The translations under genes were made by a program, and so were the position numbers. DNA of 62,498 nucleotides. Source: a virus (lineage: Duplodnaviria; Caudoviricetes). Where the stretch lies: IMG/VR virus record IMGVR_UViG_3300036846_000351, positions 1 through 62,498 of that record. One strand, given 5' to 3'. The notes under the pieces are model-generated. The model was not told where the DNA came from. It saw nothing but the letters and a program-made list of their open reading frames with translations, and did not search any database. Shown here in pieces: positions 98 to 62,498 of this stretch (the first letter of the stretch is position 1; the number at the start of each line of letters is the position of its first letter).

Positions 98-1678
98 GTG
101 TATAATTACAAACCATTTGTGGATTTGATCTTGGCCTGGATCGATGAACTGCTGGCCGCGTGCCAGCTCCGCAATGAACCGTTGCCGAGCTTTGGCTGGG
201 CAATGAACGACAAGGGCTACACCGGCTTCGCTGTCGGTGGAACGTTCTACGCGGCGGATGGCAGCGAGACGCCAGCGCTAGGTGCGGACCCGGCACTGCT
301 ACGCCGCTACGATCCGAAAGGCTCTCTAGCGCAGTGGCAACAGGCGGCGACGTTTGTTGCGGCAGACGTTCCCGAACTGCATACCGCCATCGCCGCTTCG
401 TTTGGTGCGCCGCTGCTCACCTTTAGCGGCGAAGCTGGCGGCTGCATGGCGTTTGTCGGGCCGAGCGGCGTCGGCAAGACGAGCGCCTTTGTCGCCGGCG
501 CGGCGGTGTGGGGCGACCCCAGGCACACCATGATCAGCCTCGACGACACCTCGAACTATCAGACCTTGGTGCTGGGGCAGACCCGCGCTATGCCGATCTA
601 CTGGGATGAGGCAAAGCTCGCGACCAAGGAACGGCAGGCCGACCTAGCGAATATGCTCCACAAGCTGACACAGGGGCGCGACAAGGGGCGACTGACAGCC
701 GATATCTCGATGCGAGAAGTCGGAGAATGGAACACCATCTTCCCGCTCTCGACCAACAACTCGGTGGTGGAGCTGATCCTCGGACAAGGTGGGCACATAA
801 GCGCGACGCTGGTGCGGGTGCTGGAAATCACGATCGAGCGCCAGGGCATGCAGGCGCTCGCCAGCGCCGCCAGTACGGTCGCCAGCATGCAGCAAAATTA
901 CGGACACGCCGGTCGGGTCTACGCCCACTATATCGCTCAGCACGCGCCTCGGATCGCGGCCATGGTGACGAAGGCAAAGCAGTACGTCATGGACCGTATC
1001 CGCCCCTACGAGAACGAGGAGCGGTTCTACGTCGCCGAGGGAGCGAGTACGTTGGTCGGCGCGAAGCTGGCTCGTGACCTAAAACTGATCGATCTGAATA
1101 TCGATAGGATCGGTAAGGTGATCTGCGACGCGATCTTGTCAGCTCGCGCTGAGCGCCACCGGCACGAGCCTAAGGACCCAGTGGCGATGCTGGCACAGAC
1201 CCTCGACCGATTTTGCAACGATCTTGCAAGCGCTTGGATCATAACCGCCCGGATCGCACGGACTGGTCCCCAGCCGCTAGGGACACAAGAGCGGCGGGAG
1301 CGGCTCCCAATAGGGGTCCCCAGCCGACCAACACCGGCGTACCAGATCGCCGTTGCTGATGGCATCATGCGCGTCGACCGAAACTGCTTCACAGACTGGT
1401 GCCGCAAGAAGGGATTGCCAGCGTCGGCACTGATCAAGCAGATGGTCGAGACGTGGAACGGGTTTGAGGGTCAGGGCACTATCGGCAGTCGCGCCATCTA
1501 CGTGGGCTTAAACGTTCGATACTTTCAGATATCGTTGGATAACCCAGACCTAACACATTTCCTTGATGAGTTCCCCGAGTATGCTACTACCGGTAGTATG
1601 GCGCCGGGTCAGAAGGTCGTGCCGCTGCGGCCTAGTGTATCGGTTAGTGTATCGGCTGCGCCGCCAACGATTAACTAG
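98..1678 (+). CDS. C-terminal part of primase-associated helicase (DUF927/SF3-type); continues the ORF starting at 61611 (about 776 aa joined)
   Basis: Walker A GPSGVGKT, Walker B IYWDE, motif C STNN; in frame with 61611..62498 through the overlap. Confidence 0.85.
   Translation: MYNYKPFVDLILAWIDELLAACQLRNEPLPSFGWAMNDKGYTGFAVGGTFYAADGSETPALGADPALLRRYDPKGSLAQWQQAATFVAADVPELHTAIAASFGAPLLTFSGEAGGCMAFVGPSGVGKTSAFVAGAAVWGDPRHTMISLDDTSNYQTLVLGQTRAMPIYWDEAKLATKERQADLANMLHKLTQGRDKGRLTADISMREVGEWNTIFPLSTNNSVVELILGQGGHISATLVRVLEITIERQGMQALASAASTVASMQQNYGHAGRVYAHYIAQHAPRIAAMVTKAKQYVMDRIRPYENEERFYVAEGASTLVGAKLARDLKLIDLNIDRIGKVICDAILSARAERHRHEPKDPVAMLAQTLDRFCNDLASAWIITARIARTGPQPLGTQERRERLPIGVPSRPTPAYQIAVADGIMRVDRNCFTDWCRKKGLPASALIKQMVETWNGFEGQGTIGSRAIYVGLNVRYFQISLDNPDLTHFLDEFPEYATTGSMAPGQKVVPLRPSVSVSVSAAPPTIN
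109..235 (+). repeat. 127-bp exact repeat of the window end (62372..62498), circular assembly overlap
   Basis: caaaccatttgtgg...ttcgctgtc is identical at both places and the reading frame continues across the junction. Confidence 0.95.
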
Positions 1679-1870
1679 CTGATTTGTTTGAGCTTAACGG
1701 TAATGCGCTTGCATCATAATATGAAGTCCATACTTGTCCATGGGAGACCAATACTCCAATAATTTCAATGGTTCATACACCATAATACGGCCATTATATT
1801 TTCACCATTGACCACCACTGTCCACTACGGTACAGTGTACGGGACTACCCACCGAAAAAGTGGGTGTCAC
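1633..1870. other. Candidate attP region
   Basis: Lower-GC gap upstream of the integrase, with direct repeats TAGTGTATCGG (1633-1643, 1645-1655) and a related CAGTGTACGGG near 1833 that resemble arm-type sites. Confidence 0.45.
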
Positions 1871-1897
1871 ATGAATGGTCAATGGAGCTTACCTTCA

Positions 1898-3557: not shown

Positions 3558-3872
3558 GTGCGGGTTCCGCGACCCGCGCGGGCTGACGTGTCCGCACGGT
3601 CGGTACTGGGCGAGCTGCCCGCGCTGCCGCGTAAAAGAGGTCGACCAGTCCTCTGGACGCCACGCCGCGTCCTCAAGCTGCGCAGATACGCCGATCGCGG
3701 GTTCAGCATGGCCGAGGCAGCCAAGCTGCTTGACACGACCTACGGCGCGGTTATCAACGCCGCGTCTAGGCTAGGCATCAGCTTTCATGGCCCGCCGGGC
3801 GCGCCCAAGATGAACCGCAACCGGAAGCTAGGGCTATGGCGTCAGGAGCTGCGCAAGATCGCGGCTGATTAG
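3558..3872 (+). CDS. GcrA-like HTH protein (start uncertain)
   Basis: WTPRRVLKLRRYADRGFSMAEAAKLLDTTYGAVINAASRLGIS resembles the GcrA N-terminal HTH (WT.E....L..L...G.S...IA..LG..R.AVIGK..RLGL). Confidence 0.65.
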   Translation: MRVPRPARADVSARSVLGELPALPRKRGRPVLWTPRRVLKLRRYADRGFSMAEAAKLLDTTYGAVINAASRLGISFHGPPGAPKMNRNRKLGLWRQELRKIAAD

Positions 3873-4820: not shown

Positions 4821-5192
4821 TCAAGTCCCCACAAGCTGAACAAGGGCAATCATCGAGATGATCGCCTTCTCACGCGCGCAAGGGTTACTGATCGCGCTAA
4901 GGCGACGCATCAGCTCCAACGCTTTCGGGTCCTCCATCCAGGGTTCGAGCGACTTGTTATCTTCAACACCCTCAAAAAACCAACAGACCGGAACGTCGAG
5001 CGCATCCGCGATCATCTGTAATCGCGACGCGCTGATCCGATTGGTTCCTGTCTCGTACTTTTGTACTTGCTGAAACGTCAGCCCGACCTTGGTCGCTAAG
5101 TCGGTCTGTGAAAAGCCAAGTAAGTTGCGCCGAAATTTGACTCGACTGCCCACGTATAAGTCGACCCTTTCCGGGCCGTTCACTCGTGTCAT
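4821..5192 (-). CDS. XRE-family HTH regulator (repressor candidate)
   Basis: VDLYVGSRVKFRR...SQTDLATKVGLTFQQVQKYETGTNRISASRL, the alphaproteobacterial XRE pattern; GGAGG RBS. Confidence 0.9.
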   Translation of the reverse strand: MTRVNGPERVDLYVGSRVKFRRNLLGFSQTDLATKVGLTFQQVQKYETGTNRISASRLQMIADALDVPVCWFFEGVEDNKSLEPWMEDPKALELMRRLSAISNPCAREKAIISMIALVQLVGT

Positions 5193-5246
5193 ACTGCGCC
5201 TCCCTGGTATCTTTTTATACGTTACTACTGGTAGTGCAGATTATTG

Positions 5247-6249: not shown

Positions 6250-9200
6250 TTAATTGAACCGGCCCGCCTCCAGTGCGCCCTTGAGGCGGTTCTTCGGCAC
6301 CTGCACACCGTAGGTGCCGGGCACCGCGATCTTGCCCTGCGCCCGCTGCACCGCGCGCTGCAAGTCCTGCACGGTGATCACATAGCCGCCGTTGAGCTGG
6401 CGGTTGGCGTTGTAGGCACGGACCTTTGACATGTCGCGGTTCTGCACAAAGGCGTCCTCGGCCCGCGAGCGGGCGTAGTTAATCTCGTTGTTCCGTTCCT
6501 GAATGGCAGCGCGGCGGTCGTAGATCGTCGCTGTCTCCATCGGGTTAAAGCCCAGCGTGCGCAACACCGGTGTCGATGGCGACAGCCGGTTCGCCGGCAC
6601 GATAACATTGCCCCGCGCGTCAAGCAGCCCTTGGTGCTCCATCTGGTACGACTTGGCGATGTCACCGGCAATGCGCGGCATCAGCCCCAGCACGCCGCGC
6701 TGGAAGTTGCCTGACAGCATGTCGTGGCTCGCCTGGGTCAGTTGCTCCGCCACCTCGCCCGACGCGCCGGTGAGCGCCGTGGCGAACGCCGTCGCCACCC
6801 CCTGCCGGTCAAACGTCTTGATCTCTGGCAGGTCGATCATGTTCGAGATTTTCAAGCTACGGTGCAGGTCGACACCGGCGAGCCCCAGCGCACCCCGCGA
6901 CAGGAAGGTGCTGGCAGTCGGGCCGAGTGCGTCGGTCATCCACCGCCGCAAGTCAGTCTCGTAATTGTGCGGCCCCGGCTCGCCACGCAGCAGGTCCCAC
7001 GCTCCGGTGAGCGCGTTCACCGGCACGCCGAACATGTTGGCGGTGAGCCCGACAAGCAGCGAGTGCGTCGCGACCAGCCCCGCCAGCGCCTTCAACGCCT
7101 CGGCCCGCTCACCCGGTCGGGTCGCCGCCTGCTTCACCAGCGAGCCCATCACCGAATAGAGGTGCATGCCGTAGATTTTGTACTGGAAGGTCGCCGCGAC
7201 CAGCGGGTTGCGCAGCGGGCCGCGCTCGGTCGCGAGGCGCGGCTTGTTCCAGATGTTGTAGTTGGGCATCGCGCGCTGGGCGTAGCGCATCGCGTCCTGA
7301 ATGGCGCCGTCGACATTGCCGCCGTTCTCTCGCATCGCCAGGTCAAACCCAGCCTTGAGGATCGCCACCCGGTTTGTCGCGTCGACCGCATGCTCGGCGC
7401 TGGCGAACAGGTCCATCATGTTGCCGGCCATGTGCCCCAGCCGGGTCGTGGCGTCACCGCCAAAGTTGAAGGCGCCGGGATGCGCCATACGTTGCAGCTC
7501 ACGCGAGCGTGACACGTCGATCATGCCGTACTGGTTGGCGGCGGCGATCAGCGCCTTGGCGTGCGCCGGGTCCATCTTTGCCGCCGAGACCAGCCGCTTC
7601 TCCAGTACATCGGACAGCACCCAGTTCGATTGCTGGAGCTTACCCTGCACCGCCGCGACCATGTTGCGCATGCCGCTGCGCGCGCCCTCGGGCGCAAGCT
7701 GGGTCATCGCCTTCATCAGCGCCCCGCCAGCGCGGCCATGTCCGTAGCGCGCCCCCAGGAACGCCTGGGCGTTGGACATGGCGTCGAGCTGCTGCACCGC
7801 GAGGTGCGCCGGGCGCACGAGGTGCATGACAAAGCTGAGCCCGGTGAAGCGCTTTGCAATCGTTCCAAAGAAGCGCGAGCTGCTGTCGCCGTCGATCGGC
7901 GTCTGCCGCTGGCGCAGCTCGTCGAGCACCTGGCGGGCGCGCTGCACCTGCGAGCTGGTCGGCGGGTTCTTCAACCACTCGTGTTGCTGGCGACTGTCAG
8001 CGATTTCTTCGGCGCTGACCGCCGGGTCCTTGTTGGCAAAGCGCTGTTCGAGGTCCGCCAGCCGCTGCGCCGACGCAGTGATATCCGCCGGTGTCACCTG
8101 CCCGCGCCGCTGGCCCATCTGCTGGAGCCGACGGTCAGCGTCCGCATAGATACGGCGTTCCTCGGCGCCGTTGAGCAGGTAGCCCATGCGCTCGCGGTGC
8201 GCCGCGAAGTCGCGGACAAGGTTCTGCGCCCCCTCGGTCGACGCGCCCTGAATGCCGCGCCGACGCATTGAGTACCGCGCCGCCTGGCTCTGAGTGGCGT
8301 GGGTCAGCATCATACCCGTGAAAGCGTCGAGTGCGTTGTTGGCCGCGTCACCAGTGATCCCGCGCGCCGCGAGCGCGCGTTCCAGCTCGACCGTTGAGGT
8401 TTCTGGCATGAACTCACGGAACCGGCGACCACCACTACCGGTAGTACTCTTTAATTTTACCGGTGACAGATCGACGCCCTGATTGATCGGCTTGCCAGTG
8501 TCGGGATCGGTGTAGAACTGGTCGCGGAACGCCTCGGCCTGGCTGTTGCGGTCGAACATCCGCACGCCATAGCTGTCGGTGCCAGGCTCGCCAAAGCTGA
8601 CGATATAGTCACCGTGGCGTTGCAACGGCGTAAAGTCACCCTCCATCCAGCCGGCGCGTTGCATCTTCGCGATTTCGCGCGCCATGCCGCGTACACCGGG
8701 GTTCCAGCGATCCGCCATCATCGTCGCCAACGGCGAGGCGTCGGGGTTCTTGATGAGCTGGTCGATCGTCGGTTTGCTGCGCGCCTGACGTGCCAGCCAC
8801 GCACGTTCCTCGGGTGTAATGGTATCGCCCAGCCCCAGATCGATCGCGTGCTCAAACGCCGCCTGGCGCTGCGCCCAACCGGTCTCGGTGTGGTAATCGC
8901 GCAGGTCGAGGTAGAGCTTCTGCTGCTCGGGGGTCAACGCGTTAAACTCAGCCTGCAAACCACGCGCGACATCGAGCTGATCAGCATTGAGGTGCGCGTT
9001 GGCTGCCTCGAAATCGGGTCGGCCTAGGCTCGCCTGTGCCAACGAAGCGCGGTTGCGCAAATCCTCGAACTTGTCGCCGGCCTGCGCGAGCTGCTTCGCC
9101 CATGCCTGGACTCGGTTGCCCCACTCCTTCTCGACCTCGGCAGCGGTCGCCGACATCTTCGCCCGCACACCGACGATCTTCTGTGCTTCGGGCAGCACAT

Positions 9201-12200
9201 CCTCGTTGTAATTGGCGATCTCGTTGGTCGTGCTTGCTGGCAGTATCAAGTCGCGCATCGACCGTGAGAGACCGCCGCGCTCGGCCAGGGCACGACGCCA
9301 CAGCGAGGCGCGCACCGGCTTAGTCTCGTCGGGTGTGCCAAATATGCCCTTGTCGCCGATCGCCTGTACTCGGTCGCCAAAGTCTTGCAATCGCTCCGGC
9401 AGGTCACCGGGTGCCGCGTCGGTGATCCGCTCACGCCCACGCGCCGCCGCGCGCAGCTCGGGCGCCCGATAGGTCGCCGGGTCCGGCGTCATCCCCTCGC
9501 GACGGAACCTACCGCCCTGCTCGACCGCCTCTGTCAGTGGACGCATCGCGGCGTCAAGGACGCTGGTGTGCTGCGAGCCTAGCCCGAACACCCGACCAAC
9601 CAAGTCCCTAAAGGTGCTCCACAGGCTACGCCCGCCCTTTGGCGCCAGCCCCAAATAGTGCAAGTCCGCCATCAAATCGTCACTAGCCGCGTGACGTGAC
9701 ATCAAGTCCATCACATGCGGATCAGTCAGTGCCTGCGTCACCAGCTCGGTGAAGTGATCACGCGACAGCGCATAGTCCACGCCAAAAGTTTCTTTGTCGG
9801 TCTGTGCCTTTTCTGTCCCTAGCTCGTCGATCTCACGCGCGACCGACCGCAGCCCCTCGTAAATATTCCGCTCGCGTGTAGTGACCTTCCCACCGTTCTC
9901 GATGCGGTCACCTACATCCTCCAGCCAGCGCACAGTGCCGGCGTGCAGCCCCTCGTGCAGGATCACCCTAACAGGCGGCTCTACTGAACTGGACTTAAGA
10001 GCAATGAAATCACCTTTTGAACTGTAAACACCCGCGAACCTTGCCTCCGTCGGCGCTTTAACAATCGCGACGCCGCGATCGATCGTAGCTTTCAAAGCCT
10101 TCGCCAGCGCGACGAGGTGCGGGGTTGTCGCGCGAGCCGTTGGGTTGTCGATGATATCGTCGAGATAGTCGTGCAGGTCGTGTGCCCTGCCTTCGCGTTC
10201 CCCCGCAGCAAGGCGGTCCCTGAGCGGCTTATTGATCCTCGGGTCCTGCTCAAGCCGCGCGAAGCGCCCGCCGCGCGAGTGTGCGGTTTCGTCCGGCGCG
10301 CCGAACTCGCCCTCACCTAAATCCCGGCGGTTCTGTTCCTCCATCGCTCGGAGCGCGGCGTCGGACTCGGCCTCGCTAACAGCGGGTCGCGCCACAGGTT
10401 TTCTGCGCAACGCGTTTTGCAGCTTGCCGCGCTCCTGAACCATCTGTGGCAGCCGCTCTTGGTCGTCGAATACCCGCTGGTATTCCTTGCCAATGCGATC
10501 GGCCTCGGCCAGGCGCTGCTCGGGGGTGATCGACCGGTTACGATCGTTCGCCGTCGCCGCCTGGGCGAGCTTGCCCAGCGCCTTGGGATCGCCGGCCTGT
10601 TTAATACGATCGTTGAGATAGTCGAGAAACGTCGCGAACTTGCGCGGCCTGCCGCCAGTCTTACTTGGCTCGCCATAAGCGCTGTGCGCCTCGGCGGCAC
10701 TCATCCTGCCTTCCAGCACATCGTGCAGCAGGTCGGCGGCGTGCAGCTCCTTATCGGTCGTTGAGGCGGCGCGCTGCCCCGACTTCAGCTCGCCCGCTTC
10801 CTCGCCCGCCGCCTCGGCGACGGTGGTCACACCCCGCTTAGTCTCGGTCGGCGCCTTCTCAGCTTCCCGCGCCGCAACCTCGCCCACATTCTCCATACCA
10901 CGCGCCGGCGCCCGCGCAGCGGCGGGCGGCTCAGCGGCTGCCTCGAACTCAGCGGCGGCCTCGGCCTTGATCCGCTGCGCCCGCTGCGCGGGCGTTTCAC
11001 GAGGCGCCGTGCTCGCCGTGGGCTCCGCTGGCGCCTCTGTAGGGGCGCGTTTTCTTAAAAGGCTCACGAGCCCCGGCGGCTGGGTAGGCGCCTCAGGCGC
11101 CGCCGCACGCGCCTGCTCGGCCTGTTCGAGCACCTCCCGCGCCGCCGGCTTCATCCGTGCCCGCGCCGCCGCGCGGCGCTGCTGCGCGGGAGACGGTGGT
11201 GTCTCCCCAACAGAGGATACTGTTTCGGGAGACAGCGGTGTCTCCGGCGCAGACGGAGGGGTAGGAGTTGCCTGCGCCGGAGCCCGCTCTCCGGTCGGGG
11301 CGATGGGTTCCACCATCGCTGCCGGTTCGGCTGCGACCGCCTCGACCGGTGCCCTTGCTGCTGCTTCCTGTTGACGCGCCTGCTCGATCTGCGCCGTCGG
11401 CGCGCGGCGTGTCGGCTCGACGGTGGTCGCTGGCACCTGGCTCTGGCTCGGCAGTGTCGCGGGTGATAGTTGCGGTCCTGCCGGCGGCTCTGGTGCCGGC
11501 GGCGCCTCGGGGGCGAGCTGACGCGCCTCGATCCTCGGCGGTGGGAGCTGGGCCTGCGTCGGCTCGACCGTGGTGCGCGGCACCTGGCTTTGATTGGGGA
11601 GCGTCGCGGGTGATAGCGGCGCCGTGCTCGCCGTGGGCTCCGCTGGCGCCGGTGGCGCCTCCGGGGCGAGCTGGCGCGCCGTGATGGATGACGGTAGCGC
11701 CGGCAGCTCGGGCTGCACCATGGCCGCGTTGAGTGCCGCTGCCTCGGCGGGATCGACCCCCCGACTCTGCGGCGGTGCGGGGCCTGGCCGCTCCGTCACA
11801 GGCGCCGGCTCGGGTCCACCCGGCACAGTAAATTCCGCAGGTCCGGCAGCGGCTCCCGGCGGCTGCACCGTTGGCGCCCGGCGCAGCGGGTTGACCGTTG
11901 GCGCGCCCGGCTCGGTAATCGGCGGGACTTGATCGGGCGGCACCGCCTCGCCAGGGCTCGTCGGCGGTCGGAACGGCGCCTGTCGCGACGGTGGCAGCTC
12001 GGTCGGTTCTGCCGCTGGCGGCGGTGTTCCGCGAGTAAAGTCACCGGGACCTGGCGGGTTGACTGCTTGTGTTGTCGCGGCGGCGATATCGGGATCGCCC
12101 GCTGCCGCCGCTGGTCGCTCCGCACGCGCGCCGCCAGCTAGCGCCAACGGCGCCATCAGCGAGCCGACGACACCACCCTGCGCGATCTGACCCATCGACG

Positions 12201-46183: not shown

Positions 46184-46309
46184 TATGATCCCGTAACCTA
46201 CTGAAAAGGTTGATGAAAACGCCGCCGCACGAGCGGCTTGCGAGACCGTCCCTTCCGGCAGCGATACTGCCGCCGGTCAACCTTCAATACTACTCGTAGT
46301 GGAGCTACT

Positions 46310-48800: not shown

Positions 48801-49223
48801 ATGGGATACAACTCCATGCCGGCGCCTCCGCCGCAGCTGCCAGGCCGCGCCGAGCATGTCAGCCGCTTTGAGGTGCTGAGCGAGCTGGAGGACGTGTGGA
48901 ACGACAGCCAGCTTCGCACGGCGATCCTGCATGTGACCGGCGGGCACATCAATATGCGCACCGTCGTCGTCGAGACCAAGGTGGACGCCCAGCGTCTGCC
49001 CGTGGTTTGGAGCGATGCTCAGTCGGTCGGGCGGGTGCTCTACATGAGTCCCTGGCTGCCCCACAAGAACGAGCTGGCGATCGAGGTTTACGCCGCTTGT
49101 GAGCGCGTGGTCACCGCGATGAACCGCATGAACCTCGCGCTACAAGCCAACGACGCCCAGGACGTTTTCAACCACCTTTGGAGTATGGAGCAAATCGATG
49201 TTACCGACACGAGCAAAACTTGA
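48801..49223 (+). CDS. Hypothetical protein
   Basis: GAGG RBS; codon usage fits the genome. Confidence 0.6.
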   Translation: MGYNSMPAPPPQLPGRAEHVSRFEVLSELEDVWNDSQLRTAILHVTGGHINMRTVVVETKVDAQRLPVVWSDAQSVGRVLYMSPWLPHKNELAIEVYAACERVVTAMNRMNLALQANDAQDVFNHLWSMEQIDVTDTSKT

Positions 49224-50538
49224 CTATCAACAGCGCAAAGCCATGGACGAAGGCATGGTTGCCTTTATGAATTTCTGTCCGTTCTTTGCCTATTTCTTCA
49301 ACGACCAGATGGAGGAATACCCGACGCTGGAAGTGGAGACGGCGGCGACCGATGGCCGGCGGCTGTTCTACAATCCGTCCTACATGATGACGCTCAAACC
49401 CATGGAGCGCTGTTTCGCCTTCGCCCACGAGACCTATCACGTCATCTACAAGGACCCGATCAAAATGGCGTATTACATGGCGCAAGGTACGGTGAAGGGG
49501 CTGCCCTTTATCCGCGACCTGATGAACTGCGCGATGGATTACGTCATCAACGCGGACCTTGTGGACAGCGCGATCGGCACCTGCAACCCGGCCTGGCTCT
49601 ACGACGCCGCCATCAAGGCTAGCGAGATGGCCGAGGATGTCTACGTCAAGCTCTACAAAAAGCTCCCCCCGCCCCCGCCGCAACGACCCCAACAAGGCCA
49701 GGGCCAAGGCGGTGGCAGCGACGGTCAACAACAGCCGGGGCCAACTACCGGTAGTGGGCAGCAACAAATGCCACCACCTAAAACGCGTGGGCAGACAACC
49801 GGGCAAAAGGCTGGTCACGACCAGACGGCGCAAGCCGCCGGTGGGCGCTTTGACGAGGTGCTCGAACCCCACCGCGACGCAGCGTCGGGCAAGGAGGATT
49901 TGCCCAGCGAGATGGAGTTCCGCGAAGCGGTTTCGCGCAGCGAAGCCGCTGCGAAGCGGGTGGGTAAGATGCCCGGCAACTTACAGAGGATAGTAAGAGA
50001 AATTATCGAACCTCAGATTTATTGGAAGGATGAATTACGCCTCAGGATTACAGGGAAAATCGGCGCGCGGCGCGAGAATTGGGATCGTCCCAACCGTCGG
50101 CGCCTGGTGCTCAACCCGATGGTCTACATGCCCAGCCGCCAGGGGCATGGCGCGGAGCTGATCACCGTCGTCATCGATAACTCTGGCAGTATTGGAGATG
50201 ATGAATTAACCGTGTTCTTCTCCGAGGCCGCGTCGATCCTGGCCGATTGTAGACCTAAGAAGGTCCAAATCATCTGGTGCGACGAGCAGATCAAGCGCGT
50301 CGAGGAAGCGCGCTCGCTAGATGAACTCCTTCATCTACGCGAAGCTCCTGGTGGCGGCGGAACAAGTTTTATACCACCCTTTGCTTACCTTGAGCGCGAG
50401 CGCATCCAGCCAGATACACTCGTGTATCTGACTGACATGATGGGGCCTTTTCCTAAGGAACCAAATTATCCCGTAATTTGGTGCGCCACCACCGACATCA
50501 AGGGGCCGTTCGGCGAAACGGTGAGAGTGAAGGTATAA
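49198..50538 (+). CDS. DUF2201-type HExxH metallopeptidase-like plus VWA protein
   Basis: TAATDG, FAHETYH, MIDAS DNSGS, GGGGTSF, YLTD. Confidence 0.88.
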   Translation: MLPTRAKLDYQQRKAMDEGMVAFMNFCPFFAYFFNDQMEEYPTLEVETAATDGRRLFYNPSYMMTLKPMERCFAFAHETYHVIYKDPIKMAYYMAQGTVKGLPFIRDLMNCAMDYVINADLVDSAIGTCNPAWLYDAAIKASEMAEDVYVKLYKKLPPPPPQRPQQGQGQGGGSDGQQQPGPTTGSGQQQMPPPKTRGQTTGQKAGHDQTAQAAGGRFDEVLEPHRDAASGKEDLPSEMEFREAVSRSEAAAKRVGKMPGNLQRIVREIIEPQIYWKDELRLRITGKIGARRENWDRPNRRRLVLNPMVYMPSRQGHGAELITVVIDNSGSIGDDELTVFFSEAASILADCRPKKVQIIWCDEQIKRVEEARSLDELLHLREAPGGGGTSFIPPFAYLERERIQPDTLVYLTDMMGPFPKEPNYPVIWCATTDIKGPFGETVRVKV

Positions 50539-50549
50539 GGGAGGTGACA

Positions 50550-50870
50550 ATGACCCTAACCCCAGGAGTGTATGACCATAGCGAAGCGCCTTGGTGGGAG
50601 TTTACTCGCGACGATGACACTACGGTAGTGGTGAAGCAGTGGATGTCACAAGCAGCGGAGGTGTTCGCACAAGAGATCGCAAATCGTGCCGCCGGCGGGC
50701 TTGCCCGCGTCGAGAACGAAGGCATGTCGCTCGACGGCATGCAAGGATATTACACCTGTTACCTAGAGTTTCACCCCAATCACCCGGTTTACTTCACGGT
50801 TCACCGGGGCAACCAGACCATGGAGCCAAAAGATGCCACGACGCAAACCATCGACGGTGATCAAAAGTAA
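50550..50870 (+). CDS. Hypothetical protein
   Basis: GGAGGT RBS. Confidence 0.65.
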   Translation: MTLTPGVYDHSEAPWWEFTRDDDTTVVVKQWMSQAAEVFAQEIANRAAGGLARVENEGMSLDGMQGYYTCYLEFHPNHPVYFTVHRGNQTMEPKDATTQTIDGDQK

Positions 50871-51582
50871 TTACCCGCTGCGTGATACTTTTCGGAGCGA
50901 GCTTAGACACAAGGCCGAGAGCTTGCTGCTACGGGCGGTCGAGCTGCACGAGGCGTTCTGCCCGCTCGATGTCGACGACGTGATCAACGCAATCACGCAG
51001 GAGGAAGAACGCGCGGCGTGGATGCTGCTGCGCCATCGCCAGTTCTATGTGCCGATGGCGCACAGCCTACAGCCGTGGGTCCGTGCCGACGAGGACGTAA
51101 AGCTGCCGGCCAAGGTAAACTTTATAAGTTCGTCGCGCTTCCCCATGCTCCACACGGACCCGCTGTTCTTCGATCTCGACACGCTCGACGACGACAAGCG
51201 GCAAGCCTTTGTCGAGTGGCTCAACGCGGCGACGCGGCAGCGCCGCATCTTCAAGACCGCGAAGGCGTTGACCGACGCCTTTGTCGATCACCATTGCGGC
51301 GACAGCATCGCCTCGCTGCACACCCGCTGGCCCGAGTTCACCATCGTCCTGATTGAGATGGGAGACCCCTGGCCGACGCGGGCGCGCAACCTCACATCGA
51401 TCAAGCGCAGCGAGTATGACTGGCCGCGCTCCGGCGAGACCTATGACTGGTATCTCGACAACATGCGCAAGCTGGAGATCGTCGGCGGGCTGCTCGCCGA
51501 GGCACAGATGCTCAGCGTGCCCGAGGAGAAAAACGCGCTGGTCAGGGCGAGCGTGGTTGACTGGAAGGTCGAGCCGAGCTGA
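50833..51582 (+). CDS. Hypothetical protein
   Basis: 249-aa ORF with GGAG RBS. Confidence 0.7.
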   Translation: MPRRKPSTVIKSNYPLRDTFRSELRHKAESLLLRAVELHEAFCPLDVDDVINAITQEEERAAWMLLRHRQFYVPMAHSLQPWVRADEDVKLPAKVNFISSSRFPMLHTDPLFFDLDTLDDDKRQAFVEWLNAATRQRRIFKTAKALTDAFVDHHCGDSIASLHTRWPEFTIVLIEMGDPWPTRARNLTSIKRSEYDWPRSGETYDWYLDNMRKLEIVGGLLAEAQMLSVPEEKNALVRASVVDWKVEPS

Positions 51583-51614: not shown

Positions 51615-53543
51615 ATGATCATCAGCGGCGACTTTGAAACGTTCTACGACCGCGAATACTCGCTGTCAAAGCTCACCGAGGTTGAGTACATCCTCGATGA
51701 TCGCTTTGAAGCGATTATGCTGTCGCTCAAGCTGGGGTCCGGTCGCTCCCAAATTTATGTTGGGAGCGACGCCATCGCCGCCGCGCTGGCTGAGATCGAC
51801 TGGTCAACAGCGGCGTGGCTCAGCCACAACACACGCTTCGACGGCGCGATCCTGGCCTGGCGCTTTGGCTACATCCCCTCGCTTTACCTCGATACCTTGT
51901 CGATGGCTCGCGCCACCACCCATTGGAACCTGGGGCGCTCGTCCCTGCGCGCTGTCTCCGATTACCTTGGACTTCCTCCGAAGGGGGATGAAGTCGTGCG
52001 CGCGATCGGCAAGCGGCTCGCGGACTTCACGCCTGAAGAGCTGCGCGCCTACGAGGCGTATTGCATCAGGGATAATGATAACTGCTACGAAATTTTCCAG
52101 CGCATGCGACCGTGCTTCTCCGCCGTCGAGCTGCGGCTGATCGATCTCGTACTGCGCATGTTTATTCTCCCTCAAGTTTTGTTGGACGAGGATATCCTGC
52201 AAGACCATCTAAACGAAGTTCAGGCGGAGAAAGCGGCGATCCTGGCTGAGGTCGAGGCAACCATCGACAAAAGCGTATTTAGCTCCAACGCCAAATTTGC
52301 CAAGTTGCTTGAAGATCGTGGGGTTGTCGTCCCGCTCAAGCGGTCACCGACGACCAACGAGTTTATTCCTGCGGTCGCCAAAAATGACTGGGCCTTTAAA
52401 GAGCTGTGCGTCGACGACACGCAGCCGCTGTTTGTCCAGGCGCTGCTGGCTGCGCGCCTCTCGATCAAATCTACCATCGAGGAAACCCGCACGCGCCACC
52501 TGCTCCGCTTGTCGCGTACCGCGTGGCCTACCCAAGGGGTAGGTTGGGGCGTGGTGCCCCTGAAATATTCGGGCGCGCGTACCCACCGTCTCAGTGGAGA
52601 TGGGGGTACGAATTGGCAGAACCTCGTGCGCGGCTCGACCATTCGTAAGGCCATCCGGGCACCGGATGGCATGCGCGTCGTGCATCGCGACGCCAGCCAG
52701 ATCGAGGCGCGGATGGTCGCGTGGCTGGCTGGGTGCTGGGCGCTGCTCAACGCGTTCGCCGAGGGGCGCGACATCTATTCCGAGTTTGCGTCGGTGATCT
52801 ACCACCGGCCTATCGACCGTACACCCGTGGAAAAGGGTGGCGCCGGTGACATCAAGGAAGGCTTTGTCGGTAAGACCGCGATCCTTTCACTGAGCTACGG
52901 CGCCGGTGCGGTGCGGTTCCGCCACATGCTGTTTATCGGCAACGGCGGGATCAGTTACCGGATCGAGCTGGACGAGTCGGTGCGCATCGTTCGCATCTAC
53001 CGTGACCAACACCCTGAGATACCCGAGCTGTGGAACGCTATGGGCGTGCTACTCGCCGAGATTATCGAGACGCGATCGATGCACGGTGCCGTGACACTGG
53101 CGACGGCGCATGCCATCCTGCGCCGGCTGCCAATCGCAGCGGACCACGACAGCATCGTGCTGCCCAACGGGTTGAAGATCGCCTATCCCAACATCCGTCA
53201 CTACCGTAGTGCCATGAAACTGGAGGTTTGTTACAACGACCCCTACGGCGGGACGCAGAAAATCTACGGCGCCAAGACGCTGGAGAATGTCAGCCAGGCA
53301 CTGGCGCGCATCATCGTCACCGACATCGCCGTGCGTGTTCACCACACCACCGGCTACTGCCCGTTCCTCTCGACCCATGACAGCCTCGACTACTGCGTAC
53401 CCGTCAGCGAGGCCGAGGATATGGACACCGAGCTAGAGCGCGAGTTCGCCCTTGTGCCTTCCTGGGCACAAGGACTGCCGCTCGCCAGCGAGGGCGGCTG
53501 GGGCGTGACGCTACACGACGCCGAGCGGAGGGTGAACGCATGA
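51615..53543 (+). CDS. Family A DNA polymerase with 3'-5' exonuclease
   Basis: ExoI DFET, ExoII HNTRFD, ExoIII YCIRD; motif A DASQIEAR, motif B KTAILSLSYG, motif C HDS. Confidence 0.93.
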   Translation: MIISGDFETFYDREYSLSKLTEVEYILDDRFEAIMLSLKLGSGRSQIYVGSDAIAAALAEIDWSTAAWLSHNTRFDGAILAWRFGYIPSLYLDTLSMARATTHWNLGRSSLRAVSDYLGLPPKGDEVVRAIGKRLADFTPEELRAYEAYCIRDNDNCYEIFQRMRPCFSAVELRLIDLVLRMFILPQVLLDEDILQDHLNEVQAEKAAILAEVEATIDKSVFSSNAKFAKLLEDRGVVVPLKRSPTTNEFIPAVAKNDWAFKELCVDDTQPLFVQALLAARLSIKSTIEETRTRHLLRLSRTAWPTQGVGWGVVPLKYSGARTHRLSGDGGTNWQNLVRGSTIRKAIRAPDGMRVVHRDASQIEARMVAWLAGCWALLNAFAEGRDIYSEFASVIYHRPIDRTPVEKGGAGDIKEGFVGKTAILSLSYGAGAVRFRHMLFIGNGGISYRIELDESVRIVRIYRDQHPEIPELWNAMGVLLAEIIETRSMHGAVTLATAHAILRRLPIAADHDSIVLPNGLKIAYPNIRHYRSAMKLEVCYNDPYGGTQKIYGAKTLENVSQALARIIVTDIAVRVHHTTGYCPFLSTHDSLDYCVPVSEAEDMDTELEREFALVPSWAQGLPLASEGGWGVTLHDAERRVNA

Positions 53544-55993: not shown

Positions 55994-56316
55994 CTCCTGA
56001 AGCCAAGGTCAAGGCTGGGATCAGGGCGGTGCTGCGCCGCCACGAGCCGCATGTCTACGACTATATGCCGGTGCCCGGCGGTTATGGTCGCAGCGCGCTC
56101 GACTATATCGGCTGCTGCTGCGGGATGTTCTTCGCGATCGAGGCAAAGCGCCGGGGCAAGGTGCCGACACCACGACAGGAGACAACCATCGAGGCAATGG
56201 AGCTTGCCGGTGCACGGGTCTTTATCATCGACGGACCCGACGGTATGGGAGAACTAGACCGATGGCTCACTACAGTAGTGACAGCGAAGGCGAGCCTTTC
56301 TATGTCATCGAGCTAG
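55990..56316 (+). CDS. VRR-NUC nuclease
   Basis: TPEAKVK...LDY...FFAIEAKR.GK.PT.RQ. Confidence 0.88.
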   Translation: MTPEAKVKAGIRAVLRRHEPHVYDYMPVPGGYGRSALDYIGCCCGMFFAIEAKRRGKVPTPRQETTIEAMELAGARVFIIDGPDGMGELDRWLTTVVTAKASLSMSSS

Positions 56317-58001: not shown

Positions 58002-58886
58002 ATGTCAGACAGCGTACAATTATTGACCCGACCGGAGACCGTGCTCATCCCCAGCGGTCCCAACAAAAGCGGCGACCAACGTCGACGCAATTGGGTGCCG
58101 CTGAAAAACGAACCCGGCACCTTCCGCATGATCCCTAAGTCGAGCCTGGGCGTCGACAACATCTATCAGCGCAAGGTTAACGATCGGCTGATCAGGCGCA
58201 TCATGGGTAACTGGTCGTGGGTGGCGTGCGGCGTGATCGAGGTCTCGACTCGCGACGGCGGCGTGACGTGGTTTATCGTCGACGGTCAACATCGTTGGGA
58301 AGCTGCGAAACACATATCCTCGATCAACAAACTGCCCTGCCTATGCTTCGAGCTGGACAACGTGCGCGACGAAGCTATTGGTTTCCTCGCGGCGAACTCA
58401 GAGCGGCGGCTGCCGTCGCTTGCCGATCAGTTTAAGGCGCTGCTCGTGACCGGCGACCCCAACGCGGTCGTCGCGCACAAGTTGGCGGGACAATTTTCAC
58501 GCGAGATTAAGGCGCCCGCCAGCCCAACCACAGTCTCCTGTGTCTCTGATTTTATGCGTTGCCTCCAGGCAAATCGCGCCGCGATGGAGCGGGTGTTTCC
58601 GATCATGGCCGAGGTATGTCAGGGGCGTATCATGCCAGGGCGACTGTTCCGTGCGATGCACGGGCTAGAGCGCCGAGTCACTAACGGCTCACTCAGCGAT
58701 CCGCGCTGGCGCAAGCGCATCGTCGATATCGGTCTCGACGATATCCTCGACAGTATCCGCGCGATCACTCTGATCGAACACAATGCTGGCGACCGCGCCT
58801 GCGCGCAAGGGTTGCTGCGGGCAATTAATAAACGCGTGCCGTTGCGCGGTCAGTTGCTGGCGAATATGGACATCGTGCGACGGTGA
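58002..58886 (+). CDS. ParB/Srx-fold protein (DGQHR motif, DUF6551-like)
   Basis: VDNIYQR...FIVDGQHRWEAA...EA..F...N; GGAGG RBS. Confidence 0.75.
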   Translation: MSDSVQLLTRPETVLIPSGPNKSGDQRRRNWVPLKNEPGTFRMIPKSSLGVDNIYQRKVNDRLIRRIMGNWSWVACGVIEVSTRDGGVTWFIVDGQHRWEAAKHISSINKLPCLCFELDNVRDEAIGFLAANSERRLPSLADQFKALLVTGDPNAVVAHKLAGQFSREIKAPASPTTVSCVSDFMRCLQANRAAMERVFPIMAEVCQGRIMPGRLFRAMHGLERRVTNGSLSDPRWRKRIVDIGLDDILDSIRAITLIEHNAGDRACAQGLLRAINKRVPLRGQLLANMDIVRR

Positions 58887-59739: not shown

Positions 59740-60915
59740 ATGTCGCTCGTCCCCATTGACAGCGGAGCCGTCCCCGCCGCGTTCTCTGGTCGCAAGTTAT
59801 CAGGCATGTTGGACAACGCCCGTGCCGGGGTGCAAGCCTCGTTCGCTGTCTTGGGCTACAAGGGCCGCAACTGGCGGCTGAAGTATCGCGGTGAGGAAAC
59901 ACTGCTACGTGACGCAAAGGGGATGCCGATCCCCGAGCTGGAGGTAGTGATCGTCGGTGTCGCGCCGTCGGTATCAAAAATCTACTATGTCAAAGCCTAT
60001 GTCGAGGGCGACGACAGCGCGCCCGATTGTTTTAGTCTGGATGGCGTCACCCCCGACGCCGCCGCGCCAAAGAAGCAGAGCCCGACCTGTGGCAACTGCC
60101 CGCACAACCAGTGGGGCTCACGCATTACCGACGCCGGCAAGCGCGCCAAGGAGTGCCAGGATAGCCGGCGCATCGCCGTCGTGCCCATGCTCGACATCAT
60201 GAACGAAAGCCTTGGCGGGCCGATGCTGCTGCGCATCCCACCGACCAGCCTTCCCAACCTCGCCAACTACGCCGACCTGCTCGTTCGCAAGGGCGCCGAT
60301 CTGCCGTGGGTGGGAACTAAGCTGGGGTTCGATTATAACGTGGCGTATCCAAAAATCACCTTCCAAGCGATCGGCTTTCTCAGCGACGAGCAGGCGCAGA
60401 TGGTGGTCGAGGTTATCGAGAACCCGCTCATCGAACGCATGCTGCTCGACGCGGGGCCTATCGAACAGGCTCCCGCTCCGGCGGCGGGCGCTGAGATCGC
60501 AGGCAAGCCGCCGGCGGCAATGCGTACCGCCACCGTCACGCCGATACGCGCGGGCGGTTCACCGGTCCAAGAGCCGCCCGGCCCGCAGGAACCACCGCCG
60601 CCGGAACCGGAACCGGAACCGGAACCGGAACCGGAACCGGAGCCGGAACCCGCACCGGAGCCACAACAGGCTGCTCGCACTACGGTAGTGAACCCCTTCG
60701 CCGCTGCAACCCGACCATCGACCGGAAGCGCCGTCGTGGCCCAAGCCGCCCAAGGTACAGTAGCCGCGCCGGGCGCTGCCCTTGCAGGTGCGGCTGTCGC
60801 ACCCAAGGCGAACGGGCGTGGGCGCCGGGTCGCTTCCGCAACCCAGGCGCCTGCCGCCGCGCCGCCCGATCTGGAGTCGGCGATCAGCGATCTGCTGGAT
60901 GATGTCGCAGGCTAG
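59740..60915 (+). CDS. SSB/annealing-like protein with Cys motifs and a disordered acidic tail
   Basis: PDCFS.DG, CGNCPHNQWGS, LRIPPTSL; ends DLLDDVAG. Confidence 0.7.
   Translation: MSLVPIDSGAVPAAFSGRKLSGMLDNARAGVQASFAVLGYKGRNWRLKYRGEETLLRDAKGMPIPELEVVIVGVAPSVSKIYYVKAYVEGDDSAPDCFSLDGVTPDAAAPKKQSPTCGNCPHNQWGSRITDAGKRAKECQDSRRIAVVPMLDIMNESLGGPMLLRIPPTSLPNLANYADLLVRKGADLPWVGTKLGFDYNVAYPKITFQAIGFLSDEQAQMVVEVIENPLIERMLLDAGPIEQAPAPAAGAEIAGKPPAAMRTATVTPIRAGGSPVQEPPGPQEPPPPEPEPEPEPEPEPEPEPAPEPQQAARTTVVNPFAAATRPSTGSAVVAQAAQGTVAAPGAALAGAAVAPKANGRGRRVASATQAPAAAPPDLESAISDLLDDVAG
60601..60648. repeat. CCGGAA microsatellite (Pro-Glu repeats)
   Basis: 6 perfect units plus 2 further units. Confidence 0.95.
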
Positions 60916-60958: not shown

Positions 60959-60977
60959 AACCTCCGAGGCCCGTGCT

Positions 60978-61610
60978 ATGAGCCTGGAAGCTTTTCTTGA
61001 CCGTATGGTAGCGCCGGGTAATTTCCTGGCGGTGGCGTTCAAAGGGGATAAGGGGCTAAGCCATCGCTTCTTCCCTCGTGCCAACGTCGCCGAGGCGGCG
61101 TCATTCATTCATTGGGCCTCAGACGTAGCCCAGATGGATACATGGTACTCGCCAGCGAGTTACAAAACCGCGTCGCTTCGTACCAATAATAAAACCCAGA
61201 AGCAATACTACATAGGCGCCCGCACACAGGCAAACGTCGACCGTCTAAAAACATTCTGGTTCGACGCTGATATTAAGCGCCCCGGTGACGGCAAGGACCC
61301 GAGCAAAGTCTTTGCCAGCGTTAACGACGTAGTGCGCTGGACGCAGGACTTTAGCCGGTCGAGCGGCGTACCCTTGCCTAATGTGTGGGTGCGGTCGGGC
61401 TACGGCATTCATCTTTACTGGACTTTTGCTGACGCTATTGATCGAGCGACCTGGCAACCCCATGCCGAAGCACTTAAGGGCGCGCTGATCGCGCACGGCG
61501 CCAAGGGCGACACGTCGATCGTCGCCGATAGCGCGCGCATCCTGCGCCCGATCGAAACCTTCAACTACAAGGATAAAAGCGCCTCAGTGCCCTGCTATTT
61601 GGTGGTCTAA
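60978..61610 (+). CDS. Archaeo-eukaryotic primase (AEP/RepB-like) catalytic domain
   Basis: FWFDAD, SGYGIHLYW, DSARILRP. Confidence 0.85.
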   Translation: MSLEAFLDRMVAPGNFLAVAFKGDKGLSHRFFPRANVAEAASFIHWASDVAQMDTWYSPASYKTASLRTNNKTQKQYYIGARTQANVDRLKTFWFDADIKRPGDGKDPSKVFASVNDVVRWTQDFSRSSGVPLPNVWVRSGYGIHLYWTFADAIDRATWQPHAEALKGALIAHGAKGDTSIVADSARILRPIETFNYKDKSASVPCYLVV

Positions 61611-62498
61611 ATGTTTGATGACTACCTCAACGCCGAGTTGTTGTCGGCACTGCAAAGGCTCAACCACTACGGTAGTAGCCGCCTCACCGCGACACCGGCC
61701 AAGGGACCAACCAGGCCGGGCTCGATGGCGGCGAACGCCAGGGCCGGGATCAGCGCGCAGCCGCGCGACTTCTCCATGATCGCGCAGCACTGCGGGCAGG
61801 CCCGCCAGTCGCTGATCGAGGGCGGTGCACAGGACGGACGCCAGCTCTGGCACGCGCTGATGACGCTCGCCTTCTTCTGCGAGAACGGACGCGACTGGAG
61901 CCACGCGGTCGGCAAGGACCATCCCAAATACGATACCGCCGACACCGATAAGGAGTTCGACCGGATCGAGGCCGAGCACAAGGCCAAGGGTTTTGGCGCG
62001 ACGCTGTGCGCGACGTTCGAGGCCGAGCGGCCCGCCGTATGCGCCGCGTGCCCGCATAACGGCAAGATAACCTCGCCCTATCAGCTAGGACTCAGGGCGG
62101 GTCCCTATAACCCCAACAACCTGCCGGCGAAGTTCCGCCGCAACAACGGCTGGCTGGAGCGCCTGGTCGACGAGGAATGGCGGCGCGTCGTGCAGGGCGA
62201 TATCAGCGACCCGATCCTCGAAGAAGTTGGGGATCGTTTACGGCTGACCTTTACCTTCACCCGGTCAGACCGCACGACGAAAAGGGTCGTGGTCTATGCT
62301 GACGAGCCAAACTATCGCAGTGGGCGTGAGCTGTTCGAGCAGCATGGCGTCCATCTTCAGATGTTCACTTTCAAACCATTTGTGGATTTGATCTTGGCCT
62401 GGATCGATGAACTGCTGGCCGCGTGCCAGCTCCGCAATGAACCGTTGCCGAGCTTTGGCTGGGCAATGAACGACAAGGGCTACACCGGCTTCGCTGTC
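61611..62498 (+). CDS. N-terminal part of the primase accessory/helicase protein (continues at 236..1678; not in the ORF track)
   Basis: Open from ATG 61611 to the end; HCGQ...LCATF...CAACPH.GKITSP. Confidence 0.85.
   Translation, partial: MFDDYLNAELLSALQRLNHYGSSRLTATPAKGPTRPGSMAANARAGISAQPRDFSMIAQHCGQARQSLIEGGAQDGRQLWHALMTLAFFCENGRDWSHAVGKDHPKYDTADTDKEFDRIEAEHKAKGFGATLCATFEAERPAVCAACPHNGKITSPYQLGLRAGPYNPNNLPAKFRRNNGWLERLVDEEWRRVVQGDISDPILEEVGDRLRLTFTFTRSDRTTKRVVVYADEPNYRSGRELFEQHGVHLQMFTFKPFVDLILAWIDELLAACQLRNEPLPSFGWAMNDKGYTGFAV

Follow-up and report, generated by a model that had tools for sequence, protein, structure and literature searches.

Short dispersed palindromes in the genome of an uncultured phage and their private variants in related records

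The virus record IMGVR_UViG_3300036846_000351 (Duplodnaviria; Caudoviricetes) is analyzed here as a single window, the whole record of 62,498 bp, which is estimated to be 99% complete and has a G+C content of 61.2%. A leftward structural arm, from approximately 6.2 to 35.3 kb, encodes a portal, a major head protein, an internal virion protein, a tail fibre and a 2300-amino-acid (aa) virion protein. The rightward arm encodes a large terminase, an AAA ATPase, a DUF2201 VWA/metallopeptidase-like protein, a family A DNA polymerase, a PD-(D/E)XK nuclease, an endonuclease, an SNF2 helicase, a ParB-like protein and a primase-polymerase/DUF927 helicase that spans the window ends. A tyrosine integrase and two Cro/C1-type helix-turn-helix (HTH) proteins are encoded as well. 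All of these modules are marked by a short palindrome, ACTAC-N1-2-GTAGT, which is present in 21 perfect copies at an overall density of roughly one site per 2-3 kb. The copies may be one version of a clade-wide family of dispersed sites, each private to its lineage and read by a phage protein.

The palindrome and its placement in the window

The palindrome occurs 13 times with a 2-nt spacer (ACTAC-NN-GTAGT) and eight times with a 1-nt spacer (ACTAC-N-GTAGT). In 100 dinucleotide-preserving shuffles, the mean counts of the two forms are 0.02 and 0.01, respectively, and no shuffle contains more than one copy. An initial annotation, made from the sequence alone, had listed these 21 copies together with three near copies, an average spacing of about 3 kb over all modules, and a large excess over chance at an estimated 63% GC. 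The copies were recovered at exactly the positions given there, the near copies are real, and the spacing holds, with sites more evenly placed than chance would have them. The enrichment also stands, with approximately 0.03 copies expected by shuffles, but the GC estimate was too high (61.2% measured).

Inverted ACTAC and GTAGT arms have no copies at spacers of 0 and 3-11 nt and one copy at 12 nt. The everted arrangement is absent from the window at every spacer from 0 to 12, and the direct arrangement has one copy in total. When 5-mer arms are ranked in the window, ACTAC comes first (21) and the GC-rich CGCCG second (10). The half-words are not enriched singly: ACTAC occurs 59 times and GTAGT 52 times, 21 of each inside palindromes, and a hand estimate from base composition predicts about 43 half-word copies. 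Six more copies have a mismatch in one arm. Three of these are the near copies mentioned above, all ACTACCGGTAGC, and the other three are additions to that list.

A purine lies directly 3' of the site in all 21 window copies. When 102 copies from five genomes are pooled, the full site can be written as yC-ACTAC-N1-2-GTAGT-Gr, referred to here as type A, with C at position -1 in 80 copies and G at position +1 in 84. Information content is limited to the site and two flanking bases on each side, and as a duplex the type-A site is CACTACCGGTAGTG. No compensatory variants of the palindrome were seen within a genome, where the next-ranked arms are unrelated GC-rich words. Within a genome, the sequence of the arms is fixed and not merely complementary.

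The 21 sites and six one-mismatch copies are given below. None is assigned a strand, and spacers are 2 nt unless stated otherwise. G001 to G004 are relatives found through the polymerase (63-76% identity).

1586-1597: site ACTACCGGTAGT, in the C-terminal piece of the primase-helicase, codon 529 of 558, read as TTGS; the aligned position of G001 has the motif
5224-5235: intergenic site ACTACTGGTAGT; the minus-strand CI-like HTH_3 gene (4821-5192) has its start 32 nt downstream of it
8434-8445: site in the 2300-aa virion protein, codon 1570, TTGS; present in G001 and G003 at a local aa identity of 37-47%
12449-12460: one-mismatch copy ACGACCGGTAGT
14364-14375: site in a 914-aa virion protein, codon 507, TTGS
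17115-17126: intergenic site, followed on the minus strand by GGAG and then by the ATG of the gene at 15880-17103
19389-19400: one-mismatch copy ACTACCGGTAGC
21407-21418: one-mismatch copy ACTACTGGTCGT
21622-21633: one-mismatch copy ACCACGCGTAGT
24764-24775: site in the internal virion protein, codon 54 of 582, LPVV; present in G001 and G002, not in G004
24963-24974: one-mismatch copy ACTACCGGTAGC
26528-26539: one-mismatch copy ACTACCGGTAGC
30184-30195: intergenic site directly 3' of the major head gene, adjoining a GC-rich hairpin; likewise in G001 and G002
32069-32079: site with a 1-nt spacer in a putative scaffold gene (a label of the initial annotation), codon 54 of 358, TTVV; present in G001
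35915-35925: site with a 1-nt spacer in the putative small terminase, codon 169 of 198, TTVV; G004 has the same peptide in non-motif codons
40675-40685: site with a 1-nt spacer at the apex of a terminator-like hairpin (A-tract, GC stem, T-tract)
42832-42843: site within a long open reading frame (ORF) call, 42692-43822, upstream of the start of its homologues
44442-44453: intergenic site in the early small-gene region
45040-45051: intergenic site in the early small-gene region
46289-46300: site followed by GGAGCTACT and the ATG (46310) of the AAA_5-like ATPase
47828-47839: site at the 3' end of the ORF at 47543-47854, 8 nt before the ATG of a 314-aa gene
49744-49755: site in the DUF2201 VWA/metallopeptidase-like gene, codon 183 of 446, TTGS
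50619-50629: site with a 1-nt spacer in a 106-aa gene, TTVV; present in G001 and G002
53200-53210: site with a 1-nt spacer in DNA polymerase A, codon 529 of 642, HYRS; present in G001 and G003, not in G002 or G004
56269-56279: site with a 1-nt spacer in the endonuclease (so named by PHROG; VRR-NUC is the label of the initial annotation), codon 112 of 126, TTVV
60679-60689: site with a 1-nt spacer in a 391-aa gene, codon 314, TTVV
61666-61676: site with a 1-nt spacer in the middle piece of the primase-polymerase, codon 19, HYGS; a motif is present at the aligned position in all five type-A genomes tested

After one start correction, 14 of the 21 sites are coding, with codon phases of 10/2/2, and seven are intergenic, in the non-coding 6% or so of a window that is about 94% coding. 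Several of the coding sites are only a few codons from a gene end, and some intergenic copies run straight into GGAG and a start codon. Terminator-like hairpins have a copy at their apex in at least three cases and a copy alongside in others. Sites are rare in conserved stretches, with 8 of 105 falling within blastn alignments to five more distant relatives, compared with approximately 24 expected from the coverage. Intergenic junctions, terminator loops and variable linkers are the favored locations.

The mean gap between sites is 3004 bp. Four of five type-A genomes have a spacing whose coefficient of variation (CV), 0.47-0.71, falls short of the approximately 0.93 expected, and simulated values are as low as or lower than the observed one in a fraction of 0.000-0.024; the exception is G004, which has nine sites. 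Density is higher among the small early genes. There is no strand bias relative to transcription. With strand calls made at the arm level, G-U and A-C mismatches on the sense strand number 9 versus 6 for the flanking pair and 4 versus 3 for the one-mismatch copies.

A count against codon-preserving shuffles had been proposed in the initial annotation, and 1000 within-gene synonymous-codon permutations give a mean of 0.19 in-gene sites and a maximum of three, against the 15 observed. The encoded peptides offer 25 positions at which the motif could be spelled, and it is actually written at 15. The peptide readings are those reported previously, in all three frames: TTGS at five sites, TTVV at five, LPVV at two and HYRS/HYGS at two. 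In the small terminase, the window (GGC ACT ACC GTA GTG GAC) and G004 (GGC ACG ACC GTG GTG GAT) both encode GTTVVD. Aligned positions that lack the motif in relatives differ by substitutions, often synonymous, and not by indels of 11-12 nt, and the sites arise by point and synonymous changes. Because codon shuffles lose the sites and relatives spell the same peptide with non-motif codons, selection acts on the DNA and not on the peptide, as was initially proposed. Codon choice, and even peptide sequence, gives way to it.

Private motifs in related phages

The type-A motif is not confined to the window. It has 21 copies in G001, 33 in G002, 18 in G003, 9 in G004 and 20 in a further record, G006, whereas a reversed control pattern has 0-1. 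Enrichment of the same motif in these independent records argues against the assembly artefact that the initial annotation had considered. Among 22 further terminase relatives, the type-A core has 8-20 copies in four, one or two copies in seven and none in 11. Conservation in relatives was another check suggested at the outset. Of the coding sites of the window that can be aligned, the motif is carried by nine of ten in G001, six of eight in G002, three of five in G003 and none of five in G004. Positions are thus partly shared, and the motif is kept while most positions turn over. The primase-polymerase site at 61666 is kept in five genomes despite a local identity of only 36-50%.

A possible host-wide repeat was assessed in one metagenome-assembled genome (MAG), G005, which is titled as an uncultured Acetobacteraceae bacterium and is a putative host only. 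All five perfect type-A matches in this MAG are on a phage-like contig; the remaining 2.24 Mb or so has no type-A match and contains the control pattern five times. This comparison supports the view that the sites are a feature of the phage lineage and not of the host chromosome. Within the phage collection, a megablast search with 20 kb found no match and hence no close relative at the DNA level. The nearest isolates by terminase are Rhizobium phages of the RHph_TM group, with 39% identity and the same gene order, and three soil-metagenome runs contain the sequence of the window.

De novo palindrome and word counts on 22 related records extend the picture beyond type A. The survey covers 20 records examined of 75 terminase loci, several of the records are incomplete, and some expected counts are derived from base composition only. 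In 17 of the 22, a private site built in the same way is dispersed in 7-33 copies, and the motifs fall into the following types.

Type A: yC-ACTAC-N1-2-GTAGT-Gr, in G000 (the window) to G004 and in G006
Type B: TT-ACTAC-NN-GTAGT-AA, in G007 (16 copies) and G016 (13), and in G026 (8, by pattern only)
Type C: TT-AGTAC-CG-GTACT-AA, in G020 (19)
Type D: TT-GCTAC-N-GTAGC-AA, in G018 (11, with a terminal duplication included)
Type E: TT-ACTCC-N0-1-GGAGT-AA, in G014 (22) and G019 (14)
Type F: TC-CCTAC-NN-GTAGG-GA, in G011 (9)
Type G: the asymmetric TTAnTAC-G-GGAGTAA, in G009 (14) and G010 (7)
Type H: the asymmetric CACTAC-C-GT[AC]G[GT]GA, in contig 1 of G005 (25) and in G013 (18), both pattern counts

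In addition, a related word occurs approximately five times in G012. Neither G017 nor G027, a 24-kb fragment, has a dispersed motif in the de novo counts. The complete records G008 and G015, which have no dense motif, contain four copies each of TATAG-N3-CTATA, for which base composition predicts about 0.01 per spacer; they may represent either conventional operators or the same system in a sparser form.

Other repeats are present in some of these records. In G018, the first 6.4 kb or so of the 66.4-kb record is repeated at its end, at an offset of 59,983 bp. This terminal repeat implies a genome of about 60 kb, in which three of the motif copies have been counted twice (1142/61125, 4779/64762 and 5363/65346). 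The AGGGTATCC words at 12425-13166 of G009 belong to a collagen-like Gly-X-Y coding repeat, probably of a tail fibre, that is separate from the dispersed motif. At the start of G027 (1-150), a 25-bp unit is present in six head-to-tail copies.

The motif type does not follow the tail module. G007 is alone in sharing the tail genes of the window (55-78% identity), yet its sites are type B, with TT...AA flanks and only 2-nt spacers, while the type-A genomes G001, G002, G004 and G006 lack these tail genes. The asymmetric type-H sites are oriented with and against the gene in ratios of 12:13 and 8:10, and the commonest type-H form is unable to fold as a hairpin. Because whatever reads the site changes between close relatives, a phage-encoded factor is a better candidate than a conserved host one.

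A comparable feature exists in a cultured phage. RHph_TM3_14A (MN988472.1), which infects the non-pathogenic Rhizobium etli, contains 31 copies of TTACC-N5-6-GGTAA in 50 kb, versus 0.07 in shuffles, over a span of 3598-45691. The spacing CV is 0.66 and, with the GenBank annotation, sense-strand G-U and A-C mismatches number 8 versus 6. The available passages of the literature on Rhizobium phages, those of PMC13611946 included, contain no mention of repeats. As judged from such comparisons, the family appears to span a clade of approximately 60-kb soil phages together with distantly related cultured Rhizobium phages. The first 50 kb of the 61-kb Pseudomonas phage Rollin (OR577172.1) contains six copies of AAAAGGTAGTAA, which resembles a type-B half-site; no palindrome and no ATPase or VWA match were detected in that stretch.

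Candidate binders and readings of the sites

A small group of genes tracks the motif. Three of their products are:

46310-47533, plus strand: AAA_5-like ATPase, which groups with viral AAA_5 proteins; its presence tracks the motif (correlation only)
49198-50538, plus strand: DUF2201_N + DUF2201 (VWA-like) protein; its presence also tracks the motif (again as a correlation only)
50833-51582, plus strand: fast-evolving 249-aa protein, with 17-46% identity among 16 relatives

The 249-aa family is found in all 16 motif-rich relatives and in none of five others. The VWA protein is present in 15 of the 16, a 376-aa family in 15 of the 16 plus G027, and the ATPase and a 314-aa family in 14 each; the misses of the module among motif-rich relatives fall in incomplete records. 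The module genes form a block upstream of the polymerase and are the only genes whose presence matches motif richness. As a correlation, then, an AAA_5 ATPase-VWA module co-occurs with the motifs.

The AF2 models of the 249-aa and 314-aa proteins have pLDDT values of 89.6 and 75.9. For the 249-aa protein, three sequence relatives were found; a PDB profile search and the Atlas gave no match, and the best BFVD matches are uncharacterised proteins (E 1.8e-5 to 1.5e-3). A lead to Nmad5 for the same protein, with a BFVD E value of only 0.15, is too weak to use. The ATPase has no PDB sequence match, and AAA_5 occurs in 23-79% of the members of the listed clusters among its Atlas neighbours. NCBIfam, applied to ten proteins, added only a weak DGQHR match. 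Two other candidates for a binder were set aside. The CI-like repressor (4821-5192) has homologues in 4 of 21 compared records (G001, G002, G018 and G027), a distribution that does not match the motif. The distribution of the 106-aa protein (50550-50870) coincides with the six type-A genomes, but the protein looks acidic by eye and is missing from the type-H genomes, which share a half-site.

The reading put forward here, at a probability of roughly 0.5, is that the 21 copies are the type-A version of a clade-wide family of private, dispersed dyad sites of 14-16 bp that are read by a phage protein. The sites would be docking sites in duplex DNA for a phage-encoded and probably dimeric sequence-specific protein, the specificity of which would have drifted together with its sites. 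The phage would keep a set density of sites and place them where the cost is lowest, at junctions, in terminator loops and in variable linkers, often through rare synonymous codons. Binding of the sites by a protein, the encoding of that protein by the phage and the effect of binding are the parts of this reading that we infer. As for function, a tentative preference is for transcription controlled at gene junctions throughout the genome, with the bound sites acting as roadblocks, silencers or insulators, a role that has been proposed for dispersed repressor sites of other phages.

A sequence-specific protein on duplex DNA is favored because the arms are fixed, there is no G-U bias and the type-H sites are unoriented. 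Several observations weigh on the other side. Half-site spacing that varies by 1 bp fits a rigid dimer poorly and a hairpin easily. Across 11 genomes, 25.1% of 199 sites lie within 32 nt upstream of a Shine-Dalgarno (SD) sequence and start codon, compared with 6.6% of random positions, with SD/start and gene calls on the relatives' contigs made by an in-house ORF and SD heuristic and no gene finder. In RHph_TM3_14A, 14 of the 31 site centres are within 15 nt of the end of an annotated coding sequence, compared with 8.2% of random positions; that phage has the ATPase and VWA proteins, and the 249-, 314- and 376-aa families were not detected there. The co-occurrence of the module with the motifs rests on perhaps two or three independent losses, and G012 lacks the module yet has its five or so copies of a related word. 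None of the phage proteins with a known DNA-binding fold has a matching distribution, the 249-aa model has no PDB match at E<=0.001, and the 314-aa model has no match to a solved fold.

Several known systems resemble the sites in part. In the parts of the literature available, the nearest counterpart is a 17-bp dyad repeat found in Cluster O mycobacteriophages, TGTTCGG-NNN-CCGAACA, which has 34 copies in Corndog and is denser at the early end (PMC4351075). About a third of the Cluster O copies are intragenic and the rest are intergenic or near gene 5' ends; the repeat is unoriented and unlinked to rearrangements, and its function was left unexplained, with a dimeric DNA-binding protein predicted by the authors (PMC4351075). 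Both systems have invariant inverted arms around a short variable centre, in tens of unoriented copies within and between genes across the genome. However, the two repeats are unrelated in sequence, phage lineage and host phylum, the Cluster O spacer is always 3 bp long and that of the window 1-2 bp, 14 of the 21 copies in the window are coding, and five Cluster O phages share one motif where at least eight variants occur in this clade. By inspection the arm sequences differ, and the two would be analogous rather than homologous. The initial annotation had not recognized the palindrome as a described motif. That holds for the exact words, which the printed sources, as far as they were available, contain only in unrelated contexts (among them a variant of an E. 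coli NrdR box), but not for the kind of feature, which had been described for Cluster O.

The stoperators of Cluster A phages are likewise numerous, dispersed and often located in short intergenic gaps, where bound repressor blocks elongation, and their sequence co-varies with the phage's own repressor (passages of PMC4351075 and PMC9283540). Unlike the dyad sites described here, they are asymmetric, oriented and bound by a monomeric immunity repressor, whereas even the asymmetric type-H sites are unoriented; a CI-like repressor is present in only 4 of 21 records, and many relatives have no integrase. The start-associated sequences of Cluster K, as described in part in PMC4351075, are a repeated phage word beside translation starts. 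The roughly 25% of sites upstream of an SD and start, and the GGAG within types E and G, recall these sequences, but most copies here are away from starts and many are deep in genes and conserved there.

Element-encoded proteins that act on many sites are found outside phages of this kind as well. RK2 KorB, N15 sopC and P1 C1 exemplify systems in which one element-encoded protein has a dozen or more sites over a replicon of 50-100 kb. The motif-bearing phages differ in having no ParB, KorB or C1 homologue in common, and no ParA.

It may instead be that the sites function as hairpins in single-stranded nucleic acid, either at mRNA junctions (in coupling, SD masking or end protection) or as landmarks on a lagging strand coated with single-stranded DNA-binding protein, used by the primase-polymerase/helicase. 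Such a role is rather unlikely, but it stays alive because of the 1-bp play in spacing, which recurs as 1-2 nt in type A, 0-1 nt in type E and 5-6 nt in the Rhizobium phage, and because of the preference for junctions, which suits an RNA element. In types E and G, one arm is GGAG(TAA), an SD plus a stop, and the copies at the apices of terminator-like hairpins fit as well. Regular 2-3 kb spacing, equal on both strands, would suit lagging-strand priming, and archaeo-eukaryotic-type primases are known for sequence-specific priming. The primase-helicase is, however, still present in motif-less relatives. The arms are conserved in sequence with no compensatory variants, and only 4-5 A/T-rich pairs would remain around a 3-4 nt loop, a weak hairpin by an estimate made without folding. 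No sense-strand G-U excess is seen in either the window lineage or the Rhizobium phage, and the type-H sites are randomly oriented to genes, with a commonest form that cannot pair; duplex DNA is therefore the better candidate than sense RNA. A self-marking signal is a more doubtful alternative, in which a private palindrome lets a phage machine tell the phage's own DNA from that of a host or rival, for example as a two-way stop for a DNA-degrading motor. The machine could be a nuclease, a loader for packaging or replication, or the ATPase-VWA module itself. In favor of this, every lineage has its own motif, and the rest of MAG G005 (about 2.24 Mb) has no copy; a palindrome works in both directions, the spacing is even, and the ATPase and VWA pair co-occurs with the sites. 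Against this, no nuclease or motor has been tied to the sites, the independent co-occurrence events are few, and a pure protection signal does not require the denser early region. Equally doubtful is a barcode by which a co-evolving factor linked to the ATPase-VWA module would tell self DNA from that of hosts or rivals; machines of replication, packaging or DNA degradation might, for instance, be licensed to load or stop nowhere else. If so, the diversity of motifs would reflect an arms race or exclusion between co-infecting phages.

The remaining alternatives are much less probable. The initial annotation had suggested parS-like loading, and a ParB-like gene is indeed present at 58002-58886 (DUF6551, a PHROG 'ParB-like partition protein' and the weak DGQHR match). 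Dispersed palindromic sites of ParB-family proteins are found in plasmid RK2 and prophage N15. That suggestion does not survive comparison with the relatives, however: of the 21 records compared, only G001 has a homologue of the gene, yet 16 are rich in the motif, among them G002 (complete, 33 sites), G004 and G006. A six-frame search of the window with PF13614 and PF01656 found no ParA match, although 14 of 14 control genomes were matched. A parS role is very improbable, and the ParB-like gene is probably an accessory gene unrelated to the palindromes. It is hardly more credible that type-A sites mimic the 16-bp box of the host repressor NrdR, as decoys that titrate it or operators that recruit it. 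The resemblance is nevertheless close: in the passages of PMC13584703 available, the box is a partial palindrome with critical bases C4, A6, T11 and G13 and a dispensable central AT, one E. coli box holds ACTAC-AG-GTAGT, box 2 of E. coli nrdAB is GTACTACAGGTAGTCT, and its A39C variant GTACTACCGGTAGTCT binds EcoNrdR with a KD of 127 nM. Type A has the same critical bases and fits c2 a3 C4 w5 A6 .. T11 w12 G13 t14 g15, all 13 sites with a 2-nt spacer fit the box, and the phage has no reductase gene of its own, with no NrdR family or reductase family (PF02867) match in the window. NrdR, however, acts through a pair of boxes that are separated by 15-16 bp and precede nrd genes, whereas each phage site stands alone, away from reductase promoters and often with a shorter centre, and the sites are scattered over the genome. 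No second box lies beside them: matches occur at offset 32 for 5 of 102 sites, a number equalled at offset 20, and at offsets 31-33 there are nine weak matches among the 102 sites versus about three expected, no more than at offset 20. NrdR calls for 8 (or 9) bp between the critical C and G; eight of the 21 sites have 7 bp, and the one such construct tested lost binding (PMC13584703, in part). Conservation of the box extends across bacteria, but even closely related phages differ in their motif. MAG G005 has nrdR and no site outside the phage contig, and its nrdR and partial nrd gene have no paired boxes beside them, in loci too short and too near a contig edge to be informative. The resemblance to the NrdR box looks coincidental. 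Scarcely plausible, finally, is a recombination linker or mobile micro-palindrome, by which the sites would be boundaries that promote module exchange or would spread by insertion. Many sites are located at gene or domain borders, and promoter-stem-loop cassettes do shuffle genes in T4-type phages. Yet only 8 of 168 site-by-genome comparisons place a site within 25 nt of a homology breakpoint, compared with 2-5% for random positions and 3-20% for gene boundaries, and motif-less aligned positions differ by substitution, while an 11-nt insertion cannot stay in frame. The authors of the Cluster O study, in the part available, also saw no link to rearrangements (PMC4351075).

According to the sources available in part, phage genomes with dispersed dyad repeats have been described from 2015 at the latest, with no function assigned to the repeats. 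What is new here is the extension of this known kind of feature to a clade of otherwise similar genomes across which the motif has split into at least eight variants. This diversity makes the binder findable by covariation and specificity swaps possible, and the 31 palindromes of the cultured RHph_TM3_14A make bench tests feasible. If the sites do prove to be a self-recognition or genome-wide silencing code, they would represent a general and unrecognized layer of phage genome organization, and they could be a useful signature for grouping uncultured phages.

Other features of the window

The ends of the window (1-200 and 62300-62498) share about 90 identical bases in the primase-polymerase/helicase gene, preceded by similar but diverged sequence, and this gene continues from 61611-62498 into 2-1678. 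The window looks like a circularly permuted or circular genome that is imperfectly closed, perhaps from two strain variants.

A small protein encoded at 3558-3872 has a sub-threshold match to the GcrA family (E 2.5e-4, below the Pfam cut-off). In combination with the Rhizobium phages among the relatives and the MAG labelled Acetobacteraceae, it hints at an alphaproteobacterial host.

Two long genes have features of their own. The 678-aa protein encoded at 38002-40038 contains DUF4082 and a glycosyl hydrolase 26-like stretch. None of the 21 relatives compared has a homologue, and the gene may be a recent gain that encodes a depolymerase or is carried as cargo. In the 2300-aa virion protein (6250-13152), a C-terminal region matches a DarB-like antirestriction PHROG with an E value of 2e-10.

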